NCBI GenBank assembly: GCA_934660865.1
Contig: CAKUIA010000026.1
Location: forward strand, 1 to 13,879
Direction of reading: 5' to 3'
DNA length: 13,879 nucleotides
DNA from: an uncultured Opitutales bacterium
Lineage (GTDB): Bacteria > Verrucomicrobiota > Verrucomicrobiia > Opitutales > Intestinicryptomonadaceae
The position numbers and the translations under genes are program-made. Each line of letters starts with the position of its first letter. The stretch's first letter is position 1. The notes under the pieces are model-generated. The model did no database searches. It was not told the origin of the DNA and saw only the letters and a program-made list of their open reading frames with translations. Of the stretch, positions 783 through 13,879 are shown one piece after another.

Positions 783-3700
783 ATGAAAAATAAGAATAGC
801 GTAATTACCGATGCGAACGAAGCGGTAGCTTCGGTCGCTTTTCGAGTTAGCGAAACTATTGCTATTTACCCCATAACGCCGTCCTCGCCTATGGCAGAGT
901 TCTGCGAAGAATGGGCCGTAAAGGGCAAGAAAAACATTTGGGGCTTAACACCCGATATTTCCCAGCTACAGAGCGAAGGCGGTGTTTCGGGTGCCGTTCA
1001 CGGCGCGCTTAACACGGGCACTTTAATGACTTCGTTTACGGCCAGCCAGGGCCTGCTTTTGATGATTCCGAACATGTACAAAATAGCGGGCGAACTTACC
1101 AGCTTCGTACTTCACGTTTCGGCAAGGGCTTTGGCTTCGCACGGCTTGTCTATTTTCGGCGACCAGGGCGACGTTATGGCATGCCGCCAAACGGGCTTTG
1201 CAATGCTTTGCTCGAACAGTGTTCAGGAAGCGCACGATATGGCCATGATTGCCCATGCCGCCACCCTCGAAAGCAGAGTTCCGTTCATTCACTTCTTCGA
1301 CGGCTTTAGAACCTCGCACGAAATCAACACCTACGAAATGATTTCCGACGAAGTAGTAGAACAGATGATTCCCTACGAAAAGGTTATAGAGCACCGCCAG
1401 CGTGCCCTTAGCCCCGAAAAGCCCTTTATCAGAGGCACGGCCCAAAATCCCGACGTATTTTTCCAGTCTATCGAAGCGAGAAATCCCTTCTACGACAAGT
1501 GCCCCGCCATTGTTCAGGCGCAGATGGACAAGTTCGCAAAATTGACGGGCCGCCAATACCACGTTTACGAATATGTCGGCGCAGCCGACGCCGAACAGGT
1601 TGTTGTAATTATGGGTTCGGGCGCCGAAACTGTTGAAGAAACCGTAAAATACCTGAACGCCAAAGGCGAAAAATTCGGCGTATTAAAGGTTCATTTGTAC
1701 AGGCCTTTCGACGTAAAAATGTTTGTAGACCAGCTGCCCAAAACCGCAAAAACCATTGTTGTTATGGACAGAACACGCGAACAGGGCTCGGCTGCAGAAC
1801 CCCTTTTCCTGGACGTTGCAACCGCAATTTCGCAGGCACGCTCGCAGGGTATCTGCCAAAAGTCGTTCGACCCGTCCATTATCGGCGGCGTATACGGCTT
1901 GGGCTCTAAAGAATTTGTACCCGCAATGGTTAAGGCGATTTTCGAAAACGCAAAAAGCGCAAACCCGAAACCCCGCTTTACCGTTGGCATTAACGACGAC
2001 GTTACCCACAGGTCTTTGCCCTACGACGAATCTTTCGACCTCGAAAGCGACAAGGTTTTGCGTGCCGTATTCTTCGGCTTGGGTTCCGACGGTACTGTTG
2101 GCGCAAACAAGAACACCATTAAAATTATCGGTAAGGAAACCCCCAACTATGCACAGGCCTACTTTGTGTACGACTCCAAAAAGAGCGGCGGCATAACGGT
2201 TTCGCACTTGCGTTTCGGCCCCGAAGAAATCAAGGCGCCCTACCTTATCGGTTCGGCCCAGTTTGTGGGCGTTCACCAGTTCTCGTTTATGGAAAAGCTC
2301 GACGTGCTTAAATGCGCGGCCGAAGGCGCGGTATTCCTGCTAAACTCCATTCACGACGCAAACACTGTTTGGAACTACCTTAACAAAGACGTTCAAAAGA
2401 CCATTATCGACAAAAAGCTTAAGTTCTATGTAATAGACGCCTACAAGGTTGCTGGCGAAATGGGCATGGGCGGCCGCATTAACACCATAATGCAAACTTG
2501 CTACTTCGCAATTTCGGGCGTATTGCCCGCCGACGAAGCCATAGCAAAAATCAAGGCTTCCATCGAAAAGACCTACGGCAAGAAAGGCCCCGAAGTTGTC
2601 AAGAAGAACTTTGCCGCTGTAGATGCTTCGGTTTCGAACCTGCAAAAGGTTGAAGTTCCCGCCGCAGTTTCGGCAACCGAAGGCTTTAAGCCCACGGTTT
2701 CCGACAAGGCTCCCGACTTTGTAAAGAACGTAACCGCAGTTATGATGAGAAACGAAGGCGACAGCCTCCCCGTTTCGGCAATGCCTGTAGACGGCACATG
2801 GCCCTCGGCCACTACAAAGTGGGAAAAGCGCAACATTGCGTTGTTCGTTCCCGCGTGGAACCCCGCTGCCTGCATACAGTGCGGCAAGTGCTCGGAAATT
2901 TGCCCCCACGGCGCAATCCGCACAAAGGCATATCCCGAAGAACTGCTTAAAGACGCTCCCGCAACATTCAAGAGCACAAAATTCCGCTCGAAGGATTTTG
3001 CAAACTGCGCCTTTACGGTGCAAGTTGCGGTTGAAGACTGCTCCGGTTGCGGTTTGTGCGTAAGCGTATGCCCCGCAAAAGACAAGGCAGACCCCTCAAA
3101 GAAGGCCATAAATATGACCGAGCAAGAACCCATACGCGAAGCCGAAGCCAAGAACTTCGAATTCTTTATGAACTTGCCCAACCCCGACAGAACAAAGCTT
3201 GGCAACCTGCCCAAAGACGTGCAGTTGCGCCAGCCCCTGTTCGAATTTTCGGGCGCATGTGCAGGCTGCGGCGAAACTCCGTATGTAAAAATGCTTACCC
3301 AGTTGTTCGGCGACAGGCTTTTGGTTGCAAATGCAACGGGCTGCTCTTCTATTTACAGCGGCAACTTGCCCACAACCCCCTACTGCACCAACCCCGAAGG
3401 CAGGGGTCCGGCATGGGCAAACTCGTTGTTCGAAGACAACGCGGAATTCGGTTTCGGCTACAGGCAGTCGTTAGACGTTAAAGAAGCATTTGCAAAAGAC
3501 TTGCTTACAAAGTTTGCCTCCAAGTTTGGCGACGACTTTGTAAACGAAATTGTAAACGCCGACCAAAGCACCGAAGCCGGCATAATTAAGCAGCGCGAAA
3601 GAGTTGCGGCCCTCAAAGAAAAGTTGGCCTTAGACAACTCGAAAGAAGCTATGCTTTTGAAACCCATTGCCGACGACCTCGTTAAAAAGAGCGTTTGGAT

Positions 3701-4325
3701 AATCGGCGGCGACGGCTGGGCATACGATATCGGCTACGGCGGCTTAGACCACGTTTTGGCAAGCGGCAAGAATGTAAACGTTCTTGTTTTGGATACCGAA
3801 GTATACTCGAATACGGGCGGTCAGATGAGCAAATCTACACCTATTGGCGCGGTTGCAAAATTCGCTTCCAAGGGCAAATCTATGCCCAAGAAGAATCTCG
3901 GCTTGTTGGCTATGGACTACGGCAATGTATATGTTGCCCAAGTTTCGATGGGTGCAAAAGACGCGCAGGTTGTAAAAGCCTTCACCGAAGCAAATTCGTA
4001 CGAAGGCCCCTCGCTGATTATCGCATACAGCCACTGTATCTCGCACGGCTACAACTTGGTAAACGGCCCCGACCAGCAAAAGAAAGCGGTAGAATCGGGT
4101 TATTGGCCCTTGTTCAGATTCGACCCCAGACTAAGAGGCGAAGGCAAAAACCCCTTCATGCTCGATTGCGCAGATCCCAAGATTCCCGTAACCGACTACA
4201 TGATGGCCGAAAACCGCTTCAAGATGTTGCAAAGGTCTAATCCCGAAAGAGCTGCATTGCTTGCAAAAGAAGCTCAGGAATTTGTGGATTACCGCTGGGC
4301 AAAGTACAAGAAGTTGGCCGAATAG
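783..4325 (+). CDS. nifJ: Pyruvate:ferredoxin (flavodoxin) oxidoreductase, single-polypeptide PFOR
   Basis: 1180 aa is the typical length for a fused PFOR. The N-terminus is the diagnostic MKNK..DANEAVASVAFRVSETIAIYPITPSSPMAE pyrimidine-binding region. There are two 4Fe-4S ferredoxin motifs, CIQCGKCSEICP (Cys codon at 2871) and CSGCGLCVSVCP. The ACAGCGETPY atypical cluster region and the TPP-binding motif GGDGWAYDIGYGGLDH..LDTEVYSNTGGQ are present. The C-terminal YWPLFRFDPR is typical of the family. Confidence 0.97.
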   Translation: MKNKNSVITDANEAVASVAFRVSETIAIYPITPSSPMAEFCEEWAVKGKKNIWGLTPDISQLQSEGGVSGAVHGALNTGTLMTSFTASQGLLLMIPNMYKIAGELTSFVLHVSARALASHGLSIFGDQGDVMACRQTGFAMLCSNSVQEAHDMAMIAHAATLESRVPFIHFFDGFRTSHEINTYEMISDEVVEQMIPYEKVIEHRQRALSPEKPFIRGTAQNPDVFFQSIEARNPFYDKCPAIVQAQMDKFAKLTGRQYHVYEYVGAADAEQVVVIMGSGAETVEETVKYLNAKGEKFGVLKVHLYRPFDVKMFVDQLPKTAKTIVVMDRTREQGSAAEPLFLDVATAISQARSQGICQKSFDPSIIGGVYGLGSKEFVPAMVKAIFENAKSANPKPRFTVGINDDVTHRSLPYDESFDLESDKVLRAVFFGLGSDGTVGANKNTIKIIGKETPNYAQAYFVYDSKKSGGITVSHLRFGPEEIKAPYLIGSAQFVGVHQFSFMEKLDVLKCAAEGAVFLLNSIHDANTVWNYLNKDVQKTIIDKKLKFYVIDAYKVAGEMGMGGRINTIMQTCYFAISGVLPADEAIAKIKASIEKTYGKKGPEVVKKNFAAVDASVSNLQKVEVPAAVSATEGFKPTVSDKAPDFVKNVTAVMMRNEGDSLPVSAMPVDGTWPSATTKWEKRNIALFVPAWNPAACIQCGKCSEICPHGAIRTKAYPEELLKDAPATFKSTKFRSKDFANCAFTVQVAVEDCSGCGLCVSVCPAKDKADPSKKAINMTEQEPIREAEAKNFEFFMNLPNPDRTKLGNLPKDVQLRQPLFEFSGACAGCGETPYVKMLTQLFGDRLLVANATGCSSIYSGNLPTTPYCTNPEGRGPAWANSLFEDNAEFGFGYRQSLDVKEAFAKDLLTKFASKFGDDFVNEIVNADQSTEAGIIKQRERVAALKEKLALDNSKEAMLLKPIADDLVKKSVWIIGGDGWAYDIGYGGLDHVLASGKNVNVLVLDTEVYSNTGGQMSKSTPIGAVAKFASKGKSMPKKNLGLLAMDYGNVYVAQVSMGAKDAQVVKAFTEANSYEGPSLIIAYSHCISHGYNLVNGPDQQKKAVESGYWPLFRFDPRLRGEGKNPFMLDCADPKIPVTDYMMAENRFKMLQRSNPERAALLAKEAQEFVDYRWAKYKKLAE

Positions 4326-4584: not shown

Positions 4585-5454
4585 ATGAAGGACATAGAGA
4601 AAATGGAATATACAACACTAAATAACGGAGTAAAAATGCCGATGGAGGGCTTCGGCGTATTTCAGGTTAGCGATGCCGCGGTATGCGAACGCGCGGTATT
4701 AGACGCCGTCGAAGAAGGCTATCGCAACATAGACACGGCTGCGGCCTACTTTAACGAAGAGGCCGTAGGCAACGCCATACGCAAATGCGGCGTTGCGCGC
4801 AAAGAGCTTTTTATAACAACAAAACTTTGGATTCAAGACGCAGGCTACGAAAACGCAAAAAAGGCGTTCGAAACGTCTATGGAAAAACTGGGGCTGGATT
4901 ATTTGGACTTATACCTTATCCACCAGCCTTTCGGAGACTATTACGGCTCTTGGCGCGCAATGGAAGAACTGCATAAAAAGGGCCTAATACGCGCAATAGG
5001 CGTAAGCAATTTCCAGCCGGACCGCCTTGCCGACCTATGCGCCAATGCCGAAATTAAACCCGCCGTAAACCAGATAGAGCTGCACCCCTTCTACGCCCAG
5101 CCAAACGCGCTAAAATATATGCAATCCGAAAAAATCTGCCCCGAGGCCTGGGGGCCTTTGGCCGAGGGCAAACACGGGATTTTCTCGCACCCCGTGCTTG
5201 CGCAAATAGGCAAAAAATACGGCAAAAGCGCGGCTCAAGTTGCGTTAAGGTGGAACACCCAGCGCGGCGTTGTTATAATTCCAAAATCCACCCACCGCGA
5301 ACGCATAAGGGAAAACCTAAATATTTGGGATTTTCGCCTTAACGACGCCGAAATGGCGGAAATTTCGGCTCTCGATTTGGGGCATAGCGAAATTATAGAC
5401 CACCGAAACCCCGAAACCGTAAAATGGCTTAACAGCCACAAAATACACGAATAA
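4585..5454 (+). CDS. Aldo/keto reductase (DkgA / YtbE / YvgN-like NADPH-dependent glyoxal or diketogluconate reductase type)
   Basis: The AKR catalytic tetrad context is readable: [11 protein letters not shown] (Asp, Tyr), ITTKLW (Lys), LYLIHQP (His). The C-terminal cofactor motif [14 protein letters not shown] and the family motif [16 protein letters not shown] are also present. The second in-frame ATG at 4603 (MEYTTLNNG...) gives a more typical family N-terminus and may be the real start. Confidence 0.9.
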
Positions 5455-5470
5455 CAGCGCCAAACATAAC

Positions 5471-5512
5471 AAAAAAAGGCGAAGCATTGGTTTTGCGTGC
5501 TTCGCTTTTTTT
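5471..5512. terminator. Bidirectional rho-independent terminator shared by the convergent reductase gene and the TIR-TPR gene
   Basis: Stem gcgaagca (5479-5486) / tgcttcgc (5498-5505) with an 11-nt loop. It is flanked by A7 (5471-5477) on the left and T7 (5506-5512) on the right, so either strand reads stem plus U-run. It sits between the stop at 5454 (+) and the stop at 5542 (-). Confidence 0.75.
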
Positions 5513-5541: not shown

Positions 5542-8532
5542 TTATTTTCCGCCCAGCTTGGATATGCGTTTTTCAAGCTCTAGCGCTCTTTCTGAGCCTG
5601 CGCCGAAATTTTTTACGATTATCGGAAGCGCCGCCTTGCAATATTGCCCGGCCGATTTAAAATCGCCGCCCTTTTCTAAAATGTCGGCTAAAATCAGGCA
5701 GTTTTCGGCTATTAAAACGTGGTTTGCATGCAGCATTTTCATTCGTATGTCCAAAGCTTTTTTGTAGGCGTCTACGGCTTCGGCCATTTTCCCGCTCTCC
5801 GAATATGCGTCGCCTATATTGCACAGTGTAAAGGCTATGTCGGGGTTTGCAGTCCCGAACATTTCGGTTTGTATTTTAAGCGCCTTTTCGAAAAACTCCA
5901 TTGCCTGCAAAGCTTTTCCCGTTCGCAGCAAAACGGCTCCCCTATTGTTGTATGCCAGCGCAACGCTCGGGTGGTTTTCGCCGAGCGTTTGTTTAAGGAT
6001 TTCAAGCGCGCGCACGCAATAGCGCTCGGCCTGCTCGGGTTTGCCCATCTTAAGATACGCCGAAGAAATGTTGCCGCATGCTATTGCAACATCTGAATGG
6101 GTTTTGCCCAAAGACTTTTCCTGAATTGCCAGGGCCCTTTTGTAGTAGTCTACCGCGGCTTTGTAGTTTTTTTCCAGCTCCATTACCAAGCCCAAATTGT
6201 TTAGCGAGCGCGCCAAAAGCGGGTGCGACATTCCCAAATTTTTCCTTCTTGCCTCGTAGGCTATTTGGTTGTGGTGCCTGCAGTTTTTCGAATCGGTAAG
6301 GTGGTAGTAAACGCTGCCCAAATTGCTGTGCGTAATGGCGGTTATTGTGTGGCTTTCCCCGAAAATCCTTTCCTGAATTGCCAGGGCTTTTTGGTATTCT
6401 TCGGCGGCTTTTTGATATTCGCCGCGGCGAAAGTAAAGGCTGCCTATGTTGTTTAGCGTGCGCGCTTTGTCGGCAAGGCCTGCGTCGCCGAATTTTTCCT
6501 CTATAGACAGCGCCTCCGAATAGCTTTTAAACGCCGAGCGCCACTTGCTTTGCCTGTTGTATACCCCGCCAATATCGTCGTGCGAGCGCGCGGTTTCAAG
6601 GTGCAAATTGCCGTAAAATTTAAGGCGTATTTCAAGCGCCTTTTGGTAGGCTGCAATGGCTGCTGCAAAATTTTCGTTTTCAAGGTTTGCGTCGCCTATA
6701 TTCGAGTATGTAACCGCCAAATCGGGGTGGCCGTCTTTGTGTATTGCCTGTTGTATTTTAAGGGCCAAATCGAAACATTCCAAAGCTTTTGCATATTCTG
6801 CAAGCTTTATGTACACGCAACCGATGTTGTTTTCAAGCCTTGCAATGTCGGGGTGCTTTGCGCCGAATGCCGCGGTTTCCAACTTTATTGCCTTTTGGTA
6901 GCTTTCAAGCGAGCTTTTATATTCGCCCATATGCTCAAGCACGGTGCCCATATTATTCAGTGTAAGCGCAATGTCGGGGTGGTTTTCGGGCAGATATTTT
7001 TCCTGAATGTCAAGCGCCTTAAAATGGTATTTTTTGGCGGCGGCAAAGTCGCCCAGTTTGTCGAGCTGAACGCCTATATTGTTTAGCGTTCTTGCAAGTT
7101 CCGATTTTTTTGTTTCGGGGTTTTGCCTTTGTATTTTCTCGGCTTTTTCCATCAGCCTTGCCGCGGTTTTGTAGTGGCCCATTGCGCTTTCCGACAAAGC
7201 TATGTTCGAATACGATATTGCAACCGCAGGGTGCAAAGCTCCCAAAATTTTCGCCTGCAAATCTAGCGCTTCTTTGTAGAAATTTACGGCAAGTTCGTAT
7301 TCGCCCCTGTTAAAGCAGACAAGCCCCATATTGTTTAAAATGCCCGCCCGCGAAAGCGCGTCTTCGTCGGAATTGCCGCTGTAGCAGTCCATAGCCTTTT
7401 GTATAAGCCGCTTTGCCTTGTCGTATTCGCCGTACGAATTGAAAATTGCGCCTATTGTGCGGTAGACGGTTGCGCGCACTTTGGGGTGTTTAATCTTGTC
7501 GATATCGGCCAACGCCGCCGACATAGCCTCGAGCACGGTTGTATTTTTGTTGCCCTTTTGAGACGGGTCGCTCGACATTAAAATATCGCGCAGAAAGTCG
7601 AAAGTTTGCGAGGTTTGCTTTGATTGGTCTACCGCCCTTGCCTCCGAAATTCTGGCCTGTTTTTCCGATTCTACCGCGCGTTTTTCCGACGCGCGGGCGG
7701 CGGCTTCGGAAGCGCGCGCTACAGCCTCCGACTTCTTTGCAAGCTTTTCCGACTCTATTGCCCTTGCCTCCGAAACGCGCGCAATTTTCTCCGATTCTAT
7801 TGCGTGCTTTTCGGATATCCTGGCGGCGGCTTCCGACTTTACGGCCTTCGCCTCCGAAATTTTGGCTGCGGCCTCCGAAACGCTTGCCTTGTGCTCGGCG
7901 TGCAACGCCCACATTGTAAGAACGGCAAAGCCCGCAACCGCGCTAAACGCGTAAAAGAGTATTATCTGCAAAATTCTGCGTTTTTCGCGCTGAAAACGGT
8001 TCGATATTTTTGCGCGCGAAACTTTCAGCATATACGATACAACCTGCACAAAGCCGTTTTCCCAACCCTGCTTTTGGGTTTCGTCGTCGGACTTGCGCAT
8101 GTCGGGCAGGTTGCGCGATTTTATGTCTTCGCCGTATTCGGCAAGCGCGGGGCAAAGAACGGTGTCGATATTGTCGCCCTCCAAAAATACGGGAATAACG
8201 CGCGAAATATCGTTGTTGTGGGTTTTAAGGAAATATTTTATTTCCTCGTTGCACCATTTAGACGCCGCAAAATTCTTCGAGCACAGCGCAATAACGTAGC
8301 GCGATTCGCCAAGCGAGCGCTCTATCTCCTTCTTAAAACTTTCGTCGGTAGACTCAAGTTCGTTTTTGTCGAGAAATATATTGCGAATGTATACGGGGTG
8401 CCACGGCCTGTTTTCGGGCAAAACAAGTTTTGCGGGGTAGCGGAATTTTTCGATTTGCCTTTGCAGCCACGCAGCGGCGGTCTTGTCGCGGCGCGAGTAG
8501 CTTATAAACGCATAGTATTTTGTTTGCGCCAT
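5542..8532 (-). CDS. TIR domain - single TM helix - heptad coiled coil - 15x TPR protein (996 aa)
   Basis: N-terminus YYAFISYSRRDKTAAAWL ... LDKNEL ... VIALCSKNFAASKWCNEEIKYF ... VIPVFLEG reads as a TIR_2-type domain. One 24-aa hydrophobic segment (ILQIILFYAFSAVAGFAVLTMWAL) follows, then 12 SExxAxx heptads and 15 tandem 42-aa kinesin-light-chain-type TPR units (consensus ..LNNIG.VY...GEY..A...Y.KAL.IQEK..G..HPD.A). No Walker A (GxxxxGK[ST]) or NB-ARC-like region is visible anywhere. Confidence 0.9.
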   Translation of the reverse strand: MAQTKYYAFISYSRRDKTAAAWLQRQIEKFRYPAKLVLPENRPWHPVYIRNIFLDKNELESTDESFKKEIERSLGESRYVIALCSKNFAASKWCNEEIKYFLKTHNNDISRVIPVFLEGDNIDTVLCPALAEYGEDIKSRNLPDMRKSDDETQKQGWENGFVQVVSYMLKVSRAKISNRFQREKRRILQIILFYAFSAVAGFAVLTMWALHAEHKASVSEAAAKISEAKAVKSEAAARISEKHAIESEKIARVSEARAIESEKLAKKSEAVARASEAAARASEKRAVESEKQARISEARAVDQSKQTSQTFDFLRDILMSSDPSQKGNKNTTVLEAMSAALADIDKIKHPKVRATVYRTIGAIFNSYGEYDKAKRLIQKAMDCYSGNSDEDALSRAGILNNMGLVCFNRGEYELAVNFYKEALDLQAKILGALHPAVAISYSNIALSESAMGHYKTAARLMEKAEKIQRQNPETKKSELARTLNNIGVQLDKLGDFAAAKKYHFKALDIQEKYLPENHPDIALTLNNMGTVLEHMGEYKSSLESYQKAIKLETAAFGAKHPDIARLENNIGCVYIKLAEYAKALECFDLALKIQQAIHKDGHPDLAVTYSNIGDANLENENFAAAIAAYQKALEIRLKFYGNLHLETARSHDDIGGVYNRQSKWRSAFKSYSEALSIEEKFGDAGLADKARTLNNIGSLYFRRGEYQKAAEEYQKALAIQERIFGESHTITAITHSNLGSVYYHLTDSKNCRHHNQIAYEARRKNLGMSHPLLARSLNNLGLVMELEKNYKAAVDYYKRALAIQEKSLGKTHSDVAIACGNISSAYLKMGKPEQAERYCVRALEILKQTLGENHPSVALAYNNRGAVLLRTGKALQAMEFFEKALKIQTEMFGTANPDIAFTLCNIGDAYSESGKMAEAVDAYKKALDIRMKMLHANHVLIAENCLILADILEKGGDFKSAGQYCKAALPIIVKNFGAGSERALELEKRISKLGGK
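5584..7476 (-). repeat. Array of 15 x 42-aa TPR units (KLC / TPR_12-like), aa ~353-983
   Basis: I could lay out 15 consecutive 42-residue units by eye. Each ends in ...HP(D/S/A)(I/V/L)A or a variant and restarts with (R/L/I)(T/S)(L/Y)(N/S)N(I/M/L)G. The copies are diverged at DNA level. Confidence 0.85.
7627..7878 (-). repeat. 12 tandem 21-nt / 7-aa repeats (SExxAxx) encoding a predicted coiled-coil stalk
   Basis: Protein reads SEAAAKI SEAKAVK SEAAARI SEKHAIE SEKIARV SEARAIE SEKLAKK SEAVARA SEAAARA SEKRAVE SEKQARI SEARAVD. The DNA shows ctccga/ttccga/ttcgga recurring every 21 nt. The periodicity also generates the long stop-free alternative-frame ORFs in the track. Confidence 0.9.
7903..7974 (-). 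other. Predicted transmembrane helix (aa 187-210)
   Basis: 24 consecutive hydrophobic or small residues, ILQIILFYAFSAVAGFAVLTMWAL. The 15 residues before it (SRAKISNRFQREKRR) carry 7 K/R; the 15 after it (HAEHKASVSEAAAKI) carry 2. By the positive-inside rule the N-terminal TIR is cytoplasmic. No prediction program was run. Confidence 0.7.
8128..8520 (-). other. TIR domain (aa ~5-135) of the 996-aa protein
   Basis: The FISYSRRD beta-A/AA-loop motif, the SKWCNEEI motif (equivalent to the plant and bacterial SxWCxxEL motif carrying the NADase glutamate; E97 codon at 8242-8244) and the VIPVFL strand. Domain ends are approximate. Confidence 0.8.
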
Positions 8533-8533
8533 G

Positions 8534-11500
8534 CTATTTGCGGTGTCTTAAAAACGCAGCCGCAAGCAACGCGGCAAAGGCCAAAATTGCCGCAGTTTCG
8601 GCGGGTTCGGGAACAACGGTACTAAACCTTATTTCAAGCGAGTTTTCCTCCAAATAAAAATCCCATTGGCCGGTATACGGCTTGTCGTTAAGGCAAAGGG
8701 TTATGTTAAAGTCCTTCTCCAAATCGGCAAGCGACGCCATATTGCAATCGTCTGTCCATTCCATAATGGTAAAGCCGAATTCCGATTGCGGAAGCTGCGT
8801 GATGTCTACTATAATATAGCCGCCGTCGAGAACAAACGAAGCCCCCTCGGAAAACGAAATGGGAACAATGCCGCTGTCGGGATTTACTACAATGTGAATG
8901 CCGCCGTTTTCGGAAAGCGTAAGCGATTTTCCGTTTAGAACTTCAAGTTGCGCGTCTTCCAAAAGCTTTAGCTTGGCGTTGGATACCACTGCATTGTCGT
9001 AGTATATTTTTGCCGAAACGGCGCTTTGCCCCGCTTTTGGCCTGTGTGCAATTATGTCTATGGAAGTTGCCGAATTTGAAGCCGAAAAATTGCGTATCCT
9101 GCCGTCGGCATACAACACGTTTGTAAGCGAAGAAGCAGTGTCTACGCAGTAGTCCGAAACATTCGACCCCCTAAAATCCACCCTCTCTAAAATTGCTCCG
9201 TTAAAGACCATTCCTTTTGTATCGCTTACATCTTTCGAGTTTTCGATAACCTTAACCGACACATTTTGAAAGTTTACGTTTTTTAGAGTTGTTCTTTGTC
9301 CATAATAATCATCAGGATCACAATAAAACCCCTTTGCGCCGCCCGAAACACCCGTAGAAATTGCGGTAAAACTTGCTCCGCTAAAATCTACATTGCTAAT
9401 AATAGCTACCGAATCTACGTAAAAGCCAGTGGCCCATGACATATCTTGCGATTCAGAAGTTGCATAAAATGTAGCGTTTCTAAAATCCGTATTTGTTATG
9501 TTTCTACCAGAATAAAATGCGCTACTTTGAGCAAGGTAGTCTTTACCAACCGCGCTTGTTTTAAATACTGCCCCGCTAAAATCGCAATCGGTTATGTCTT
9601 TTCTTCTCATCAAAAAGCCAATACTTTGTGCATGGTAGTTAGAATTTGATGTTGCTGTAAATTCAGCATTTGCAAAATTAGAATTGATTATACTTTCGTC
9701 CGAATAAAAACCGTATGCACCTGCGGCATAAAAATTAGTTCCCGAAGTTTCATTGGAACTTACATTTATTTTTGCCCCTACAAACGATGCGTTTACTATA
9801 TCGTTTCCCACAACGCTAAGTCCGTATGAATATGCCCCGTTCTTTGCATTTGTTTCGGTATAAATTTCAACACCGTCGGCCAAAATTATGCCGTCGCCGC
9901 TTTTGTTCGACAAATCAATACCGTATGCATCTGCCGAACCGTTTGAATTTTCGGCCGAAGTATATATTTTTGCATTGTTTGCGCAAAAGGCATAACCGCT
10001 TTTAGAACCGTTGTTTAGTTGCGTATCGGCAAGGTTTATGCCGCGCGAAATAATGTCGCCGCTGCCCAAGCCGTTAGAGGCGCTAACTTCTATAACAGTG
10101 TTGCCAAAGTTTACATTTTCCAGCGTAGAGCCGCCGAAATTTGCGCCAATAAACACCGTAGGGTCTGCCGAAGTAGAATCGTTTACGCCGCTTGCAATAA
10201 CGCTAGAGCCGCTAAAGTCGGCATTGGTAAGCTTGCCCTTATACATTGTAATTGCGCAAGACTGCGTTTGCTTGTCGTAGCTGTTTAAAGCCGAAGTGTT
10301 GTCGGAAACAAAAGTTGCATTTTTTGCCGACAGGTTTTTTATGTCGGCACCGGCCATAGCCAAAGCGTAGGCTTCGTTTTCGGCCTGCGAATACACGCTT
10401 GCATTGTCCAGCGTTATGCCGTTTATATTCGAGCGCGAAAGAAACAACCCTATAGACGTAGCGCCCTGCGTTTTGGAAATTTGCGAGCCTGCAAGGTTTA
10501 AATTGCCAACATTTGCGCCCTCGGCAAAACCCAACGCAAATATGCCGTTTTTATCGGCAACGCTGGCCGAAACTTTTTGCGCATTCATATCCGAAACGGT
10601 TTTGCCGTTAAAATTCCAGCCGCTAACGTCCAGCCCCGAAATATTCAACCCGCGTATTGTGCCGTCGCCATAGTCGCGAGTAGAATAGAATTGCTCTTTC
10701 GTTAAATTCGAACCCGCAAAGTTTGCCCCCGACACTGCAAGACCGTTTAAGTCGGCACCTTTCAAATTTGCGCCGCCAAAATTTGCGTTTGTTGCATCGG
10801 CATTGGCAAGTATTGCGTTGGTAAAATCCGCGTAAGAGGCGTTTGTGTTTTTAAGATTGGCGTTTGTCAGGTTTGCCGAGTTAAAATCGGTTTTGTCTAG
10901 TTGCGAATTTTCGAAGTTTGTGCCTACGGCTTTTGTGCTGCGAAATTTTACACCCGAAAATGTTTTGTCGGACAAATCCTGCCCGCTTATGTCTTTGCCG
11001 CTGTAGTCTAAAGTTGTTTCTTCGGTGATAATTATTGTGTTGTCGGGCAGTTGCGCCCCGTCAGAATCGCCGCCTGCGCCAGCAGAATTGGAACCGCCCG
11101 CCGAGGCCTCCTGTCCCCCGGATTTATTGTCGGCAGAAGTGTCGGTGTTTTTAGCCACATCGTTTGCAGATACATTTGAATCGGATTTTACCGTGCTAGA
11201 CGATGTGGTTTTGCCAGTCGAATCCTTTTCGGTGGTAGTTGTAGTAGAAGTTCCGTCGGGATTGTTTACATAGTCGGTCTTTTTTGTGCTGCCGTCGGAA
11301 CGCGTGTCGGTTATCGAAGCCTCTTTAAGCGTAGTTTCCACTTTTTCGGAGGGCAGCTGCGAAACGTCTTTGCCGCCTATTGTACCCGAAGACGAACCGT
11401 CTTTTACAACCAAGTCAACTTTCGATGTATTGCCCGAGTCGCCGCTTCCAGTTTTAGTTTCGCCCGAAACGCTCGTAGTTCCGTCGGGGTTTGCCTTTAT

Positions 11501-11989
11501 AACAAGGTCGGCCTCTACGGTTTTGTCGTCGCCGGTAAATTTAATCGAAACGGTTGTATTGTCTTCCTTGTCTACCGAAGAAACTACGTCCAAAATTACG
11601 TCGCCTTCGGCGCCGTCGGCGTCGCCCACACCGTCGGCAAGAACTTTAGAAACCGCGTCTAAAACGTCTTTGTTGCCCGAGTCGCCCAAAGAGTCTCCCA
11701 AAGCCGAAACCAAAGCGTCGGCCTGCTTTGCCATAGAGCCCGTGTCGCCCTCAAGCGGCGGCGTTAAAACCAGTTGCGCGTCCGACGATTTTGCGGATTT
11801 GCCCAATTTTACGCGTACGCGGCCGTATTTTGTATCGAAAGAATAGTCGCACGACTGCAACACAATTTCCTCTCCCGAAAATTTCGCCAAAAGATTTATT
11901 GCGCCCGCCTGAACGTCGGCCTGGGCAAAAAGCCCGCAGCCCGTAAACAACATTGCAAACAGCGTTATCGAAAAAAATATTTTTTTCAT
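8534..11989 (-). CDS. Large exported PEP-CTERM protein with pentapeptide repeats and a beta-helix-like repeat array (~1151 aa from the ATG at 11989)
   Basis: The ORF is open from 12073, but Met29 (ATG at 11989) starts a classic signal peptide, MKKIFFSITLFAMLFTGCGLFAQA|D. Using it removes a 41-nt overlap with the upstream gene. The C-terminus VVPEPAETAAILAFAALLAAAFLRHRK has the PEP motif, a hydrophobic helix and a basic tail, which is the PEP-CTERM architecture. Internal pentapeptide repeats and a long degenerate repeat region are listed separately. Confidence 0.85.
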   Translation of the reverse strand: MKKIFFSITLFAMLFTGCGLFAQADVQAGAINLLAKFSGEEIVLQSCDYSFDTKYGRVRVKLGKSAKSSDAQLVLTPPLEGDTGSMAKQADALVSALGDSLGDSGNKDVLDAVSKVLADGVGDADGAEGDVILDVVSSVDKEDNTTVSIKFTGDDKTVEADLVIKANPDGTTSVSGETKTGSGDSGNTSKVDLVVKDGSSSGTIGGKDVSQLPSEKVETTLKEASITDTRSDGSTKKTDYVNNPDGTSTTTTTEKDSTGKTTSSSTVKSDSNVSANDVAKNTDTSADNKSGGQEASAGGSNSAGAGGDSDGAQLPDNTIIITEETTLDYSGKDISGQDLSDKTFSGVKFRSTKAVGTNFENSQLDKTDFNSANLTNANLKNTNASYADFTNAILANADATNANFGGANLKGADLNGLAVSGANFAGSNLTKEQFYSTRDYGDGTIRGLNISGLDVSGWNFNGKTVSDMNAQKVSASVADKNGIFALGFAEGANVGNLNLAGSQISKTQGATSIGLFLSRSNINGITLDNASVYSQAENEAYALAMAGADIKNLSAKNATFVSDNTSALNSYDKQTQSCAITMYKGKLTNADFSGSSVIASGVNDSTSADPTVFIGANFGGSTLENVNFGNTVIEVSASNGLGSGDIISRGINLADTQLNNGSKSGYAFCANNAKIYTSAENSNGSADAYGIDLSNKSGDGIILADGVEIYTETNAKNGAYSYGLSVVGNDIVNASFVGAKINVSSNETSGTNFYAAGAYGFYSDESIINSNFANAEFTATSNSNYHAQSIGFLMRRKDITDCDFSGAVFKTSAVGKDYLAQSSAFYSGRNITNTDFRNATFYATSESQDMSWATGFYVDSVAIISNVDFSGASFTAISTGVSGGAKGFYCDPDDYYGQRTTLKNVNFQNVSVKVIENSKDVSDTKGMVFNGAILERVDFRGSNVSDYCVDTASSLTNVLYADGRIRNFSASNSATSIDIIAHRPKAGQSAVSAKIYYDNAVVSNAKLKLLEDAQLEVLNGKSLTLSENGGIHIVVNPDSGIVPISFSEGASFVLDGGYIIVDITQLPQSEFGFTIMEWTDDCNMASLADLEKDFNITLCLNDKPYTGQWDFYLEENSLEIRFSTVVPEPAETAAILAFAALLAAAFLRHRK
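8537..8617 (-). other. PEP-CTERM sorting signal
   Basis: V-P-E-P (codons at 8603-8614), then AETAAILAFAALLAAAFL (hydrophobic) and RHRK (basic) directly before the stop at 8534-8536. Confidence 0.85.
9149..10441 (-). repeat. About 12 degenerate ~32-aa repeats of an unrecognised type (I-x-N-x-D/N-F-x-x-A-x-F-x-x-x-S ... A-x-G-F-Y)
   Basis: Clearest copies: IINSNFANAEFTATSNSNYHAQSIGFLMRRKD / ITDCDFSGAVFKTSAVGKDYLAQSSAFYSGRN / ITNTDFRNATFYATSESQDMSWATGFYVDSVA / IISNVDFSGASFTAISTGVSGGAKGFY... / LKNVNFQNVSVKVIENSKDVSDTKGMVFNGA / ILERVDFRGSNV. Earlier copies are more degenerate and the boundaries are approximate. Confidence 0.65.
10688..11002 (-). repeat. Canonical pentapeptide-repeat block (A[D/N]LxX type), ~20 pentads
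   Basis: GKDISGQDLSDKTFSGVKFRSTKAVGTNFENSQLDKTDFNSANLTNANLKNTNASYADFTNAILANADATNANFGGANLKGADLNGLAVSGANFAGSNLTKEQF shows 5-residue periodicity with central L/F and A/N/D/S at i-2. Confidence 0.85.
11054..11491 (-). other. Low-complexity S/T/D/G/K-rich linker (long-ORF aa ~195-340)
   Basis: Runs such as NPDGTTSVSGETKTGSGDSGNTSK, NPDGTSTTTTTEKDSTGKTTSSSTVKSDSN and GGQEASAGGSNSAGAGGDSDG. NPDGT(T/S) occurs twice. Likely a disordered or glycosylatable spacer. Confidence 0.7.
11918..11989 (-). other. Signal peptide (Sec/SPI AQA|D site; an alternative lipobox-like FTG|C lies upstream)
   Basis: MKK n-region, hydrophobic core IFFSITLFAMLF, then both FTGC (lipobox-like, with F at -3) and AQA|D (AxA signal peptidase I site). 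Which site is used cannot be decided from sequence. Confidence 0.7.
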
Positions 11990-12032
11990 ACGGTTTCTAT
12001 CTATAAAGCTTTTTTCGGGTAATAATGCCGAG

Positions 12033-13508
12033 CTAAAGCGACTGTTTAGACGCCAGTATTTTGTTGATTTCAAAAACTATATCCACATTGTCGCGGTCGT
12101 ATTTTTCGTAGTCTTCGCCGAACATTTCCGAAACCGGCTTAAGCTCGTCGAACGGAACAAGGCAGGTATGCAACTTTTTTGCGGTGTCTTTGTTTTCAAC
12201 CATCATCTCGCCCGAAAGATTTAATTTGTCCCAACCGCGCGAATATAGATAGGCGCACCAGCGCAGGTGCTCGGTTCTGGTAAGCGTGTCGTACTTGGCT
12301 GGATTGTCGCGCAGCCACGCCCTGTAGGCGTTTCCGTCGGCAAATTTTCCGAAAATTTCGCGCCCTATCATTTTCACAAAACTGTAGTTAAAATCGGCAA
12401 CCGAAATGTTCGACCCCCTTTCAAAGTCGGTCATTCCTATCCAATTTTTCATTTTCATAGAATCCAGTTTTGTTTTGTTGTAATAGTCGTTTACAAAACG
12501 CCCGCCCATTGTAAAGGCGTCGGCCATTATGGCGTCTACACTATATACGCTTTTAAGACTTCCGAATGGCTGCACATTAGGCATGGAACTTTCGTCTAAA
12601 TGGGTAGTTTCCAAAAACGGCGCAACGGTTGTTTCGGCGTTGAACGACTCTACAAGGCGCTCCTGCACGCTCTTTGCAAAATCAAAAGTCGCTTTTTCGT
12701 CGTCTAGGTCTACCACAACCAAATCGTATTTGCCGAAATCCAGCTTTTGGACAAGCTCAAGCGGGTTTACCTCTATTTGCTTAAACTCCACATCGCCGAT
12801 AAAGCCCGAAAACTTTTCGCAAAAGGCCCTGCATTTTGCCGCTACCGAAACGTCGAAAACGTCAACAAAAAACCTTGCCCCCTCAAACCTGCCCTGCTCG
12901 TAGGTTTTAAGCAATGCCTCGCGGGAATTTTTTGTAAAGCCAACAACGGCCACTTTAATGTCTTTCTTTGCCCTAAGCGTGTCGCTGTCGAACTGCATTG
13001 CGTCTACAGGCCTGAATTTTTTTGAAAGCGTATACGCCGCAAGCTTCGACGGATTTACAAGCTTTACATTAAAAGTTGCAAGAATGTCGTTTTGGCACGA
13101 AATTAAAAAACGCTCTATTTCCTCCCAGTTGGGGGCTATGTACATTGAAAAATCGTCGAACGAAGCCCCGCATTTTTTTGCGGCTTTCATAATCTGCGAG
13201 GAAAGCGAGGCGTTGCGGTCGGCATTTTTAGAAATGAAAAAGAACTCGTTTTTGCCGTCCGAAAAAAAGCGTTTTATTTGGCGGTCCGAAAAAACGAATA
13301 TGTCCGAATCGAATTCTACGGTTTTTACTTTTACGCGATTTTTAAAATCGGCCCATTGAACATCGCAAAACGACTGCTTGCTGCCCAAAAACAAAATTTT
13401 TGCCGTAGAACTCGACCTACCGTATATGTCGGCGGCAAGCATTCTGTGTTCGGGATTATTGCCGAAAAAAACGTATTCGGTATCGGAATTATAAAAGGCG
13501 TTTTTCAT
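12033..13508 (-). CDS. RyR-domain protein with two degenerate Rossmann/RCK-N-like modules (491 aa)
   Basis: The C-terminal third matches the bacterial RyR-domain pattern: WIGMTDFERGSNISVADFNYSFVKMIG (W..L....SN...AD....K..G), then RTEHLRWCAYLYSRGW...KDTAKKLHTCLVPFDELKPVSEMFGEDYEKYDRDNV (EH.RW......GW....kd...K.HPcLVP(Y/F)DEL.....K..DRd.V). The N-terminal two thirds contain two strand-loop-helix starts, YVFFGNNPEHRMLAADIY and KVAVVGFTKNSREALLKTY. These resemble TrkA-N/RCK Rossmann folds but lack GxGxxG. No signal peptide or TM segment. Confidence 0.85.
   Translation of the reverse strand: MKNAFYNSDTEYVFFGNNPEHRMLAADIYGRSSSTAKILFLGSKQSFCDVQWADFKNRVKVKTVEFDSDIFVFSDRQIKRFFSDGKNEFFFISKNADRNASLSSQIMKAAKKCGASFDDFSMYIAPNWEEIERFLISCQNDILATFNVKLVNPSKLAAYTLSKKFRPVDAMQFDSDTLRAKKDIKVAVVGFTKNSREALLKTYEQGRFEGARFFVDVFDVSVAAKCRAFCEKFSGFIGDVEFKQIEVNPLELVQKLDFGKYDLVVVDLDDEKATFDFAKSVQERLVESFNAETTVAPFLETTHLDESSMPNVQPFGSLKSVYSVDAIMADAFTMGGRFVNDYYNKTKLDSMKMKNWIGMTDFERGSNISVADFNYSFVKMIGREIFGKFADGNAYRAWLRDNPAKYDTLTRTEHLRWCAYLYSRGWDKLNLSGEMMVENKDTAKKLHTCLVPFDELKPVSEMFGEDYEKYDRDNVDIVFEINKILASKQSL
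12069..12536 (-). other. RyR (ryanodine-receptor repeat)-like domain region, aa ~325-480
   Basis: Motifs as listed for the CDS. EHLRW is encoded at about 12258-12272 (ccagcgcaggtgctc on +). Boundaries are approximate. Confidence 0.7.
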
Positions 13509-13557
13509 ATTATTCGGGAACGATGGCTGTTATTTTAGCTGATAACGCGGCAAAACG

Positions 13558-13645
13558 TGAAAGAATGGAGTTTTCCCCAACCGGGCAAACCCCGCCATAT
13601 TGCATGCAACAAGTTGCATGGCACATACAAGGATTCATTCTTACA
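13558..13645 (-). promoter_or_regulatory. Nested inverted repeats in the leader/upstream region of the operon (possible structured 5' UTR or operator cluster)
   Basis: Outer 10-bp inverted repeat tgaaagaatg (13558-13567) / cattcttaca (13636-13645), 9 of 10 complementary. It encloses the small hairpin cggg-caaac-cccg (13582-13594) and an 18-bp palindrome catgcaac-aa-gttgcatg (13603-13620). It lies 50-137 nt upstream of the ATG at 13508. Confidence 0.35.
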
Positions 13646-13657
13646 AGACACCCATGT

Positions 13658-13676
13658 ATAGTATTAAGAATACGAT
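13658..13676. repeat. Left copy of a 19-nt inverted repeat pair (atagtattaagaatacgat)
   Basis: 18 of 19 nt identical to the reverse complement of 13825-13843. Each copy is also internally palindromic (cgtatt-N3-aatacg). Confidence 0.7.
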
Positions 13677-13824
13677 ACTTGGCTAGCATTCCCCAACAGG
13701 CTTATTCTCAATATGATAAGAACATATCGTTAAAAATACACAAAACGCCAATCTCTAAAACACATAAGTACAAATCAATTCCCTTCTTTTTTTATTTCAA
13801 GCAGTTGAAAAATTAAATTTGACA

Positions 13825-13843
13825 ATCGTATTCTTAATACGAT
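13825..13843. repeat. Right copy of the 19-nt inverted repeat pair (atcgtattcttaatacgat)
   Basis: Its reverse complement atcgtattaagaatacgat matches 13658-13676 at 18 of 19 positions. The asymmetric central triplet (ctt versus aag) is inverted between the copies. TTGACA (13819-13824) abuts it on the + strand. Confidence 0.7.
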
Positions 13844-13879
13844 GAACACGGAATACATTTCAGCTAGAAAAATTTTGAC

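Follow-up and report, generated by a model that had tools for sequence, protein, structure and literature searches.

The window analysed here is the whole 13,879-nt stretch of DNA from an uncultured Opitutales bacterium, in which ORF calling and direct reading place three tightly spaced genes on the minus strand (Table 1). Genes 2 and 3 are separated by a single nucleotide (junction TAGcATG, read directly). The start of gene 2 was taken as the ATG after the signal-peptide Met, and an alternative TTG start at 12073 would overlap gene 1.

Table 1. Features of the three-gene operon and its borders (positions are those of the window).
Feature	Position	Strand	Details
Hairpin between convergent genes	5473-5512		A7/T7 flanks; folds on both strands; bidirectional intrinsic-terminator candidate
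Gene 3, 996 aa	5542-8532	-	Single-pass membrane protein: TIR, TM, heptads, TPR array
Gene 3 TPR_12/TPR_10 array, aa ~340-990	5563-7515	-	TPR_12 3e-118
Gene 3 heptads, aa 219-302	7627-7878	-	12x SExxAxx; coiled coil
Gene 3 TM, aa 187-209	7906-7974	-	Single predicted TM
Gene 3 TIR, aa 1-170	8023-8532	-	Catalytic-type Glu E97; Pfam TIR_2 1e-16
Gene 2, 1151 aa	8534-11989	-	Secreted; signal peptide aa 1-23; pentapeptide aa ~320-470; further degenerate repeats; PEP-CTERM-type tail
Gene 2 PEP-CTERM-type sorting tail, aa ~1125-1151	8537-8617	-	VPEPAETAAILAFAALLAAAFLRHRK; read directly
Gene 1/gene 2 spacer, 43 nt	11990-12032		Read directly
Gene 1, 491 aa	12033-13508	-	Cytoplasmic, no TM; Rossmann/RCK-like aa ~10-165 and ~180-330, then C-terminal RyR (Repeat12-type)
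Gene 1 RyR domain, aa ~395-491	12036-12326	-	H414, W417, K440, H447, D471
Divergent intergenic/promoter region, 333 bp	13509-13841		19-nt palindrome (ATCGTATTnnnAATACGAT) twice: 13658-13676, 13825-13843
Integrase-like gene start (MNTEYISARKIL...)	13842-13879	+	Divergent; leaves window edge; gene present on longer contig L001

A consensus scan of the intergenic region upstream of gene 1 returned one sigma-70-like match on the minus strand (13561-13532), no better than chance. Pfam found no match in the partial protein of the integrase-like gene, and its N-terminal 125 aa share 35% identity (E 6e-37) with a PF00589 integrase near the gene-1 homolog of another Opitutales locus (L004). Downstream of gene 3, the hairpin has folding z-scores of -4.0 on the plus strand and -5.4 on the minus strand, and was missed by a terminator consensus scan because its loop is longer than 8 nt. 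The first-pass annotation had described a minus-strand trio with gaps of 43 nt and 1 nt, inverted repeats upstream and a bidirectional terminator downstream; the ORFs and junctions as read directly, the two palindromes in a region ending at the integrase-like gene, and the folding of the hairpin on both strands bear this out, with the terminator still a candidate. It was also right that the usual TIR partners are missing from the window, for which PADLOC matched no named system, and a literature search found no published description of this TIR/RyR system. A location in a defence island, which had also been raised, was not borne out, as the flanks are metabolic genes (PFOR, aldo-keto reductase) and the integrase-like gene.

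With Pfam, the RyR model (PF02026) matched gene 1 itself weakly (E=0.16, 12.7 bits against a threshold of 27.4). The assignment holds despite this, because profile-profile alignment of its RyR domain with canonical RyR domains (hhalign, 97.7%, E 1.6e-12), comparison of the family profile with solved structures in the PDB (RyR1, 6uhi, 2e-6) and Pfam RyR matches in 12 of 17 family members all agree, and these comparisons confirm the C-terminal domain as a member of the RyR/Repeat12 family. The AlphaFold model (pLDDT 87, pTM 0.89) has two Rossmann-like domains and overall lies closest to the tandem-RCK gating rings of LjCASTOR, BK and Slo2.2 (TM 0.43-0.45). One family member has a sub-threshold TrkA_N match and another matches a Slo-like RCK, and the GxGxxG motif is absent from both Rossmann-like domains of gene 1, which look like RCK scaffolds and not like NAD-binding sites. 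Neither a pore nor a recognisable enzymatic or killing domain was found in gene 1. The gene-1 family was absent from IMG/VR viral contigs and is thus host-encoded.

Phage RyR domains (RyR Tad, RyDEP) bind or cleave 2'/3'cADPR made by TIR proteins (2026 preprints PMC13232231; 10.64898/2026.06.04.730250). H129, W132, K147, H154 and D171 of RyR Tad align with H414, W417, K440, H447 and D471 of gene 1, and counterparts of the ligand-contact set of RyDEP (H75, W78, H100, D117) are likewise kept. Of the gene-1 residues, H414, W417, H447 and D471 do not vary in the family alignment (A1), and K440 hardly does. Since H414 and D471 also correspond to the catalytic His/Asp dyad of RyDEP, binding and hydrolysis are indistinguishable from these residues.

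Gene 3 carries a TIR domain with a catalytic-type glutamate, as judged from its alignment. The invariant E97 lies in a WCNEE motif and aligns with the catalytic Glu of plant TIR NADases such as ROQ1 (WCLEEL), and the ThsB_TIR model also matches the protein (3.8e-7). Pfam found no P-loop NTPase between the TIR domain and the repeats, where there is a TM helix and a coiled coil instead, which rules out a STAND/Avs-type TIR NTPase. Seven K/R residues precede the TM helix and one follows it. From this charge bias and the one predicted TM, the TPR array is predicted to be periplasmic; arrays of the TPR_12 type are usually cytoplasmic. An inside TIR and an outside TPR array had been proposed before, and the topology signals are consistent with this across ~45 homologs.

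The signal peptide of gene 2 is matched at the C-terminus by a tail with the PEP motif, hydrophobic helix and basic cluster of PEP-CTERM proteins (VPEPAE, a hydrophobic stretch and RHRK), kept in all 12 of 12 homologous loci. The NCBIfam and Pfam HMMs did not detect this tail, for which the model is a short motif. The Pentapeptide match (PF00805, 3.8e-21; tandem A(D/N)LXX repeats) is limited to the segment given in Table 1, and the remainder of the protein has no family match. No exosortase genes were found within the window.

The trio recurs with tight spacing in at least six further Opitutales lineages at 44-78% gene-1 identity. It is abutting or overlapping in L008, L012, L011, L083 and L006/L017 (the last cut by the contig end), and L009 has the three genes in another order (PEP-CTERM, gene 1, TIR). 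This recurrence, once in a different order, supports the earlier view of the trio as one unit. Among 60 loci with a gene-1 relative, drawn from GTDB species representatives (Opitutales, Bacteroidales, Clostridia, Lachnospiraceae, Oscillospiraceae and others), a TIR gene or a TIR-like DUF4062-STAND gene lies within 3 kb of the relative in at least 35 and within 300 bp in at least 32, these counts being lower bounds because many contigs are cut. Two proteins (P0246, P0255) are fusions of TIR and gene 1, and in three loci (L053, L072, L013) a DUF4062-STAND/NACHT-TPR protein takes the place of the TIR partner. Co-occurrence across genomes, which the first-pass annotation had put forward as a check for the trio or pairs from it, stands for the TIR/gene-1 pair, which spans phyla, but not for the PEP-CTERM gene, which is confined to Opitutales. 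Some Opitutales loci (L004/L015) have gene-1 homologs alone, beside a TetR gene. In three Firmicutes loci of the TIR-TM-TPR type (L065, L067, L069) a large signal-peptide protein unrelated to gene 2 lies within the cluster.

Nearly all full-length partner TIR proteins have an N-terminal TIR domain, a single TM helix 10-50 aa past it with more K/R before than after, and then variable repeats predicted to lie outside the cell. These repeats are typical of surface proteins (TPR, Sel1, BspA-LRR/DUF285, LRR, WG, beta-propeller). The cross-phylum TIR adjacency, the fusions and the conserved cADPR-contact residues together give strong indirect support, drawn from sequence, to the RyR domain of gene 1 as a putative receptor for a TIR product. 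The annotation had suggested a nucleotide-binding receptor or regulator of Rossmann and RyR type; the RyR part of this is indirectly supported, but the Rossmann-like domains, RCK-like and without GxGxxG, do not support that role.

Gene-1 relatives outside Opitutales have TM helices, and in 34 of the 60 loci a K+-channel paralog with a TTVGYGD filter and a C-terminal RyR domain lies beside them, scoring above the Pfam gathering thresholds (Ion_trans_2 5.7e-15, RyR 1.4e-7). Since most other bacteria thus combine a membrane-embedded gene-1 family with an RyR-tailed K+ channel, the ancestral output was probably ion flux or membrane depolarisation.

We lean, with some reserve, towards reading the operon as an NAD-signalling module of a Thoeris-like kind, with a transmembrane TIR receptor at its centre. 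Gene 3 would sit in the inner membrane with its TIR domain in the cytoplasm and its heptad coiled-coil stalk and ~650-aa TPR array reaching into the periplasm. An event at the envelope would change how the ectodomain and stalk oligomerise, which would draw the TIR domains together, and these would then make a cyclic-ADPR-type product from NAD+. The gene-1 RyR domain could bind this product in its His-x-x-Trp/Lys/His/Asp pocket, as phage RyR proteins bind 2'/3'cADPR in theirs, and relay the change to the tandem RCK-like body. In the Opitutales version gene 1 is soluble with no membrane pore of its own; there is a precedent in TrkA/KtrA, where an RCK protein is soluble and acts on a membrane partner encoded apart from it. 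Such a module might serve in anti-phage defence or in sensing of the envelope or environment.

Like Thoeris (types I-XI, a TIR protein ThsB with a signal-binding effector), the operon places a TIR with a catalytic-type Glu next to a domain type that elsewhere binds TIR-made cADPR isomers, and Thoeris types II, VI, VII and X have effectors with TM helices or ion-channel-like effectors (10.64898/2025.12.03.692087). However, ThsB is small and cytosolic, whereas gene 3 appears to be a single-pass membrane TIR with large extracytoplasmic repeats, and the putative receptor domain here is RyR (Repeat12) on a tandem-RCK scaffold and not SLOG, Macro, DUF6650 or SLATT. We traced the type X 'ion channel' effector to a 246-aa protein of B. 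cereus that has several TM helices and lacks RyR, RCK and a K+ filter; the TIR of that system is from a different family from gene 3. None of the curated Thoeris models (PADLOC ThsA/ThsB, NCBIfam types) matched at threshold and no effector model matched, leaving weak generic TIR matches (PADLOC ThsB E 0.005-0.009; ThcB4 16.8 bits, cut-off 220). The phage RyR proteins that counter Thoeris (the glycosidase RyDEP and the sponge RyR Tad) have a fold of the Repeat12-type family and the HxxW/K/H/D contacts in common with gene 1, but they are small, phage-encoded and end the signal, while gene 1 and its relatives are host-encoded, large, fused to RCK-like domains, often also to TM helices or K+ pores, and encoded beside the TIR protein that would make the signal. 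As for RCK-regulated K+ channels and transporters (MthK, the BK/Slo gating ring, TrkA/KtrA), tandem-RCK gating rings align best with the gene-1 model, and the B-type paralogs carry TTVGYGD in a pore of the Ion_trans_2 family; in contrast to known RCK families, the TrkA_N matches are sub-threshold, GxGxxG is absent in gene 1 and a C-terminal RyR domain is present. FxSxx-COOH loci pair a TIR-like FxsC with a protein of TPR_12-type repeats, but this identity was rejected on scores (FxSxx_TPR 191 against 300, FxsC_Nterm 27 against 130), and the window has neither FxsA/FxsB nor radical-SAM or peptide genes. PrsT of PEP-CTERM/exosortase loci, also a TPR protein tied to PEP-CTERM biology, was rejected at a score of 44 against a cut-off of 312.

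Taken with the K+-channel relatives beside TIR genes, the TIR/RyR operon suggests an undescribed bacterial TIR-to-RyR signalling pathway. More tentatively, and with more doubt than belief, we propose a bacterial 'outside-in' path from a Toll-like TIR receptor through a cyclic-ADPR-type messenger to RyR Repeat12 domains on RCK-regulated K+ channels or soluble gene-1 relatives, which might correspond, in prokaryotes, to the ligand-binding module of animal RyR and to cADPR-to-RyR signalling, and could even be the origin from which these evolved. As in Toll-like receptors, extracellular repeats, one TM helix and a cytoplasmic TIR are predicted, although the order is inverted in gene 3, where the TIR is N-terminal. 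As in the animal cADPR/ryanodine-receptor axis, a cADPR-type molecule would act on an ion channel bearing RyR Repeat12 domains, but animal RyR is a giant Ca2+ release channel and the bacterial relatives are 2-TM K+ channels with RCK. The parallel is a functional analogy with one shared domain, not orthology. If the proposal is true, the window holds a verrucomicrobial variant of the pathway that is coupled to a PEP-CTERM surface protein.

Other readings of the TIR/RyR link have to be weighed. From the TIR side, an RyR or gene-1 ORF was found within 8 kb in only 15 of 80 related TIR-TM loci, and those genes without an RyR neighbour often stand in tandem TIR arrays, suggesting that the TIR receptor can exist without an RyR partner and could itself be an effector that depletes NAD+. 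The TIR protein would then both sense and kill, and the RyR proteins, gene 1 and small RyR-only ORFs of 94-101 aa (the commonest TIR-side partner, 13 loci), would clear stray cADPR-type by-products, by sequestration or hydrolysis, or would reset the system, as host counterparts of the phage sponges and RyDEP. The invariance of the RyDEP catalytic equivalents H414 and D471 and the lack of an obvious killing domain in gene 1 are in keeping with this. On the other hand, the gene-1 family has the layout of a ligand-gated channel, with a pore or TM region followed by RCK and a ligand-binding tail, a K+ channel with the same RyR tail in over half of the loci is hard to square with a mere sponge, and most RyR homologs with the conserved residues bound the signals and did not cleave them (PMC13232231), so we regard this explanation as improbable. 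Alternatively, the wiring from TIR to RyR and K+ channel could belong to ordinary physiology and not immunity, with extracellular cues as its input (for example host glycans, neighbouring cells or stress at the envelope) and K+ flux, the membrane potential or the export of surface proteins under its control. The family occurs mainly in anaerobes of the gut and rumen, the ectodomains include classic gut-bacterial adhesin or ligand-binding repeats (Sel1, BspA-LRR/DUF285, WG), among the neighbours are metabolic genes, MerR/TetR regulators and, in L062, a response regulator of the GGDEF-EAL type, and PADLOC gave no match. We still think it somewhat unlikely, given several traits of conflict systems: sensor domains are diverse and are exchanged even between closely related proteins, TIR paralogs occur in tandem arrays, DUF4062-STAND-TPR proteins replace TIR, integrase and NERD genes lie nearby, and synteny is not conserved past the operon. 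Bacterial TIR systems tested so far are also mostly anti-phage.

The place of the PEP-CTERM gene in the Thoeris-like module is a separate matter. It is missing from one Opitutales locus (L016) and from all Firmicutes and Bacteroidota loci, putting it outside the conserved core and linking it only within Opitutales; the proposal that the TPR array monitors the PEP-CTERM protein consequently rests on clade-restricted synteny. Gene 2 could be a passenger, one of the many Opitutales surface-protein genes, inserted between its two present neighbours and since passed on by vertical descent with no role in TIR-RyR signalling. It is the least conserved of the trio (34-63% identity against 70-91% for TIR), and three further paralogs lie upstream in L011. 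Yet junctions of 0-18 nt are kept in at least six lineages down to the lowest gene-1 identity, gene 2 stays beside the pair even in the permuted locus, operon-linked copies have a common specific N-terminal region (QADVQAGAINLL...GEEIVLQS.DY.F), and the Firmicutes clusters noted above also contain a large signal-peptide protein, which makes a passenger a rather doubtful explanation. In the favoured reading gene 2 would be a fast-evolving, PEP-CTERM-sorted, lineage-specific accessory, and it may be what the TPR array faces outside the cell, as its partner or ligand.

Gene 1 encodes a 491 aa protein with no Pfam match at normal thresholds (RyR at E=0.16), and only 18 homologs were found in an index of 5.8 billion proteins. 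An AlphaFold model built from 17 homologs was confident (pLDDT 87, pTM 0.89) and predicts a pair of Rossmann-like domains and then a helical domain at the C terminus; globally it is most similar to channel gating rings built of tandem RCK domains (CASTOR, BK, and Slo2.2; TM 0.43–0.45). The C-terminal domain was assigned as RyR from three family-level results: the family profile matches solved RyR domains (2e-6), a Pfam RyR match is present in 12 of the 17 family members, and profile-profile comparison with canonical RyR domains gave 97.7% probability (E 1.6e-12). The contact residues of RyR domains have been defined in two preprints on phage anti-Thoeris proteins (10.64898/2026.06.04.730250; PMC13232231). 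When gp68 of phage CB1, the RyR Tad sequence used here, was aligned to gene 1, residues H129, W132, K147, H154, and D171 corresponded to H414, W417, K440, H447, and D471, and across the gene 1 family four of the five positions are invariant and K440 is nearly so.

To place this protein among its relatives, the gene 1 alignment was scanned against one genome per species, giving 60 loci; a few are from Opitutales and most from Rikenellaceae, Bacteroidales, Prevotella, or Clostridia (Oscillospiraceae, Lachnospiraceae, Christensenellales, and Butyrivibrio). TIR neighbours were called with purpose-built HMMs and checked by Pfam, and 35 of the 60 loci had a partner within 3 kb of the gene 1 relative, a TIR gene in 33 cases and a TIR-like DUF4062-STAND-TPR gene in 2. 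The partner was within 300 bp in 32 of the 60, and many of the loci with no TIR neighbour sit on truncated contigs. The partnership of TIR and RyR, which the first-pass annotation had read from the window alone as part of an envelope-coupled TIR operon, is supported well beyond that reading; the interpretation as a whole is supported in part. Forms of gene 1 lacking TM helices, like that of the window, occur in Opitutales alone. Elsewhere the relatives are proteins of ~620 aa with about three N-terminal TM helices (A-type), accompanied in 34 of the 60 loci by a ~520-aa paralog (B-type) that bears the K+ selectivity filter TTVGYGD and exceeds Pfam thresholds for both Ion_trans_2 (5.7e-15) and RyR (1.4e-7); both types keep the same RyR contact residues. 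Among 1.84 billion cluster representatives the family numbers 4216 at E≤1e-3, of which 355 reach E≤1e-30, and the best 150 members include two fusions (P0246 and P0255) with a TIR N-terminal to a gene 1-type body. No gene 1 relatives were found in IMG/VR viral contigs. Two other relatives of ~1150 aa (P0194 and P0201) have an additional TM and end, past the RyR domain, in a papain-like (C1 peptidase) domain.

The reciprocal comparison used a TIR-TM alignment against metagenomes, with the best 80 loci kept. TIR-TM relatives were collected by locus scans because a word-indexed search with a TIR-TM fragment returned 5 proteins and missed known full-length homologs. An RyR or gene 1 ORF lay within 8 kb in 15 of these 80 loci (adjacent in 14 of the 15), many of the TIR-TM genes were solitary or in tandem arrays, and the sole recurrent non-TIR partner was a small RyR-only ORF of 94–101 aa. 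Given 35 of 60 loci from the gene 1 side and 15 of 80 from the TIR side, the association is strong seen from RyR but only partial seen from TIR. In metagenomic loci L084–L162, TIR-TM-repeat genes often lie in tandem arrays of 2–6 paralogs. Bacteroidales-like contigs repeatedly carry, in this order, a ~502-aa protein (cluster c2), a ~380-aa TIR-TM gene, and a 95–101-aa RyR-only ORF. A separate cluster on a Logan contig from SRR26557939 (L013, 55-9134) combines a TM-RCK-RyR protein (626 aa), an RyR-only ORF (95 aa), a DUF4062-NACHT protein of 1087 aa, and a protein of 755 aa in which a Slo-like RCK is joined to an RyR domain. Two sugar-phosphate enzymes, a SIS-domain protein and a DAHP-synthase-family protein, lie beside these RyR and TIR-like genes.

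The 996 aa of gene 3 comprise a TIR domain at the N terminus (TIR_2, 1e-16), a single TM at aa 187–209 with 7 K/R before it and 1 after, a stalk of 12 near-perfect SExxAxx heptads (aa 219–302; window 7627-7878, minus strand), and a long TPR_12/TPR_10 array (3e-118). By the positive-inside rule, the TIR is predicted to be cytoplasmic and the stalk and TPR array periplasmic. Stalk length varies among homologs by whole heptads gained or lost (alignment A2), and no DNA-level tandem repeat was detected under the stalk of gene 3. Nearly all full-length partner TIR proteins in the 60 loci follow the same plan of N-terminal TIR, TM, and variable repeat module, with the single TM ~10–50 aa past the TIR and a K/R excess on the TIR side. 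The repeats are Sel1, beta-propeller, TPR, BspA-type LRR/DUF285, LRR, or WG modules, all typical of surface proteins. Judged from sequence, these partners would place an extracellular repeat domain and a cytoplasmic TIR on either side of the membrane, the same logic as Toll-like receptors with inverted polarity.

Recurrence of the trio was judged from the contigs of gene 1 homologs and a later metagenome scan. The order of gene 1, pentapeptide/PEP-CTERM gene, and TIR-TM-TPR gene is found in loci L011 (gene 1 identity to the window 78%), L008 and L012 (44%), and L083, and L006/L017 have gene 1 and the pentapeptide gene before the contig ends. L009 (56% gene 1 identity) has a permuted order of PEP-CTERM gene, gene 1, and TIR-TPR gene. 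Some junctions across the trio loci overlap and others span up to a few tens of nt, with 1–6 nt from the PEP-CTERM to the TIR gene. Since the flanking genes are different in every lineage, the three genes move or persist together, in keeping with the initial view of a single unit. Not every locus conforms: gene 1 is on its own in L004/L015, and in L016 it precedes two TIR-TM genes, with no pentapeptide gene. A variant also without the pentapeptide gene was seen at L014:749-6092 (GCA_045589455.1), where an RyR-only ORF (94 aa) and a TM-RCK-RyR protein (632–717 aa) accompany a TIR-TM-coiled-coil-TPR protein in two overlapping ORFs (309 + 634 aa), with a NERD-domain gene next; the two ORFs may reflect a frameshift or a genuine division of the gene.

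Comparison with known systems agreed with the earlier impression that no named system fits the trio. PADLOC returned only generic TIR or TPR matches for all three proteins and nine homologs, and NCBIfam gave nothing above cut-off for the window proteins. A Thoeris survey preprint lists 29 configurations of effectors, among them a validated type X whose effector is an 'ion channel' (10.64898/2025.12.03.692087); it mentions RyR solely for animal channels, and the searched part of its supplement contains no gene 3-like TIR sequences and no RyR or TrkA terms. A type X TIR (P0025) was traced to a B. cereus locus and belongs to the ThsB/DUF1863 family, and the candidate effector beside it, a TM protein of 246 aa, has no RyR, RCK, or K+ filter, so identity with type X was rejected. 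Plasmid matches of the P0025 TIR family are type II (Macro) Thoeris systems. STAND/Avs was rejected as gene 3 has no NTPase, and FxsC/FxSxx-TPR and PrsT were rejected with scores far under their cut-offs. Literature searches for a host system of TIR with RyR or RCK yielded only the two phage preprints. As no type fits, the window system was classed as a new TIR-signalling (Thoeris-like) variant outside the named types.

Phage RyR Tad binds the 2′/3′cADPR made by Thoeris TIRs with nanomolar affinity (10.64898/2026.06.04.730250) and phage RyDEP cleaves it (PMC13232231), both through Repeat12 domains. We somewhat favour the operon being a Thoeris-like signalling module of a transmembrane TIR receptor and an RyR-domain receptor protein, and what we say of the function of the TIR-RyR module we infer computationally. 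RCK domains are known to link the binding of a ligand to channel gating, and RyR repeats function as dimers. The TIR product would bind the RyR tails, and their occupancy would then gate the K+ channel complex; in the window version the product would alter the state of a soluble RCK-like assembly. Plant TIR NADases are the nearest match to the gene 3 TIR profile (ROQ1, 9e-8), and the invariant E97 aligns with their catalytic Glu. Alternatively, the TIR could itself be an NAD+-depleting effector buffered by RyR proteins acting as sponges or hydrolases, like their phage counterparts; set beside the RCK-like fold of gene 1 and the K+ filter of the B-type paralogs, we think this improbable. The signalling module is hypothesized to serve in defence in the window. 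The same wiring might instead serve non-immune sensing of the envelope or environment, which is orthogonal to mechanism and which we hold to be a possible but less probable role.

Gene 2, 1151 aa when read from its ATG, combines a signal peptide with pentapeptide repeats at aa ~320–470 (4e-21) and a tail of VPEPAE, a hydrophobic stretch, and RHRK that is kept in every homolog, although this PEP-CTERM-type tail has no HMM match in Pfam or NCBIfam. Relative to the window, conservation is 70–91% for the TIR, 48–80% for the TPR array, 44–78% for gene 1, and 34–63% for the pentapeptide protein, which also shows large length changes among the trio loci. It would be an Opitutales-specific accessory, possibly a surface partner of the TPR array, and its role in the operon is hypothetical; that it is a passenger, as its divergence might suggest, we hold less probable beside its close junction with the TIR gene. 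Three Firmicutes TIR-TM-TPR loci each encode a large signal-peptide protein (927, 914, and 1586 aa) in the interval that separates the channel pair from the TIR genes (L065:12868-15651, L067:4472-7216, and L069:12725-17485); these have no Pfam match and may be analogues of the PEP-CTERM gene.

If the signalling module is real, RyR Repeat12 domains would have a use beyond phage counter-defence, as receptors in the host for nucleotides derived from TIRs, and would offer a tractable bacterial model for the long debate on whether RyR-type domains are targets of cADPR-type molecules, and where. It would also be a new kind of TIR system with its sensor facing outward through the membrane, in which immunity or signalling is possibly triggered at the envelope instead of by cytoplasmic phage components. 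Thousands of uncharacterized gut and rumen bacterial proteins, including ligand-gated K+ channels, would gain a function, and the window adds a testable predicted link from a PEP-CTERM surface protein to a periplasmic TPR receptor. Membrane TIR receptors, K+ channels, and an RyR domain encoded by the host would be tied together over three phyla, in steps that are each testable.

Features of the window and their coordinates
Feature	Position	Strand	Remark
Pyruvate:ferredoxin oxidoreductase (PFOR) gene	783-4325	+	
Aldo-keto reductase gene	4585-5454	+	Pfam 6e-53
Gene 3	5542-8532	-	
Gene 2	8534-11989	-	
Gene 1	12033-13508	-	
Intergenic region 5′ of gene 1			333 bp; two 19-nt palindromes
19-nt palindrome, two copies	13658-13676, 13825-13843		ATCGTATTCTTAATACGAT and its near-complement
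Integrase-like gene start	13842-13879, continues as L001:1-699(-)	+	divergent from operon

The 13.9-kb window derives from a metagenomic contig (L001 and L002 are identical contigs), and its nearest genome relatives are Opitutales (Verrucomicrobiota) MAGs. The first-pass description of the sequence is confirmed; the spacers inside the block are 43 nt and 1 nt. Genes 1–3 converge on the PFOR and aldo-keto reductase genes, and between the convergent genes is an A7/T7-flanked hairpin that folds well on either strand (z −4.0 and −5.4). Consensus scans of the window for sigma-70 promoters and terminators reached only chance level and missed this real hairpin. A 333-aa ORF antisense to gene 3 (7624-8625, plus strand) is most likely not a gene, its R/F/L richness coming from the Ala/Glu/Lys-rich coiled-coil region read backwards. 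The palindrome copies lie 167 bp apart between gene 1 and the divergent integrase-like gene, with that at 13825-13843 abutting the integrase start codon, and could be operator or recombinase sites. Homologous PF00589 integrase genes are also near gene 1 homologs in L004/L005/L015 and L011, which hints at a mobile element that carries or adjoins the three-gene block. In L001 the similarity stops after ~aa 125, so that copy may be degenerate. Unlike in L001, PFOR in L002 was called as two pieces of 166 aa and 980 aa (L002:9362-9862), suggesting a frameshift or assembly difference of that sample.
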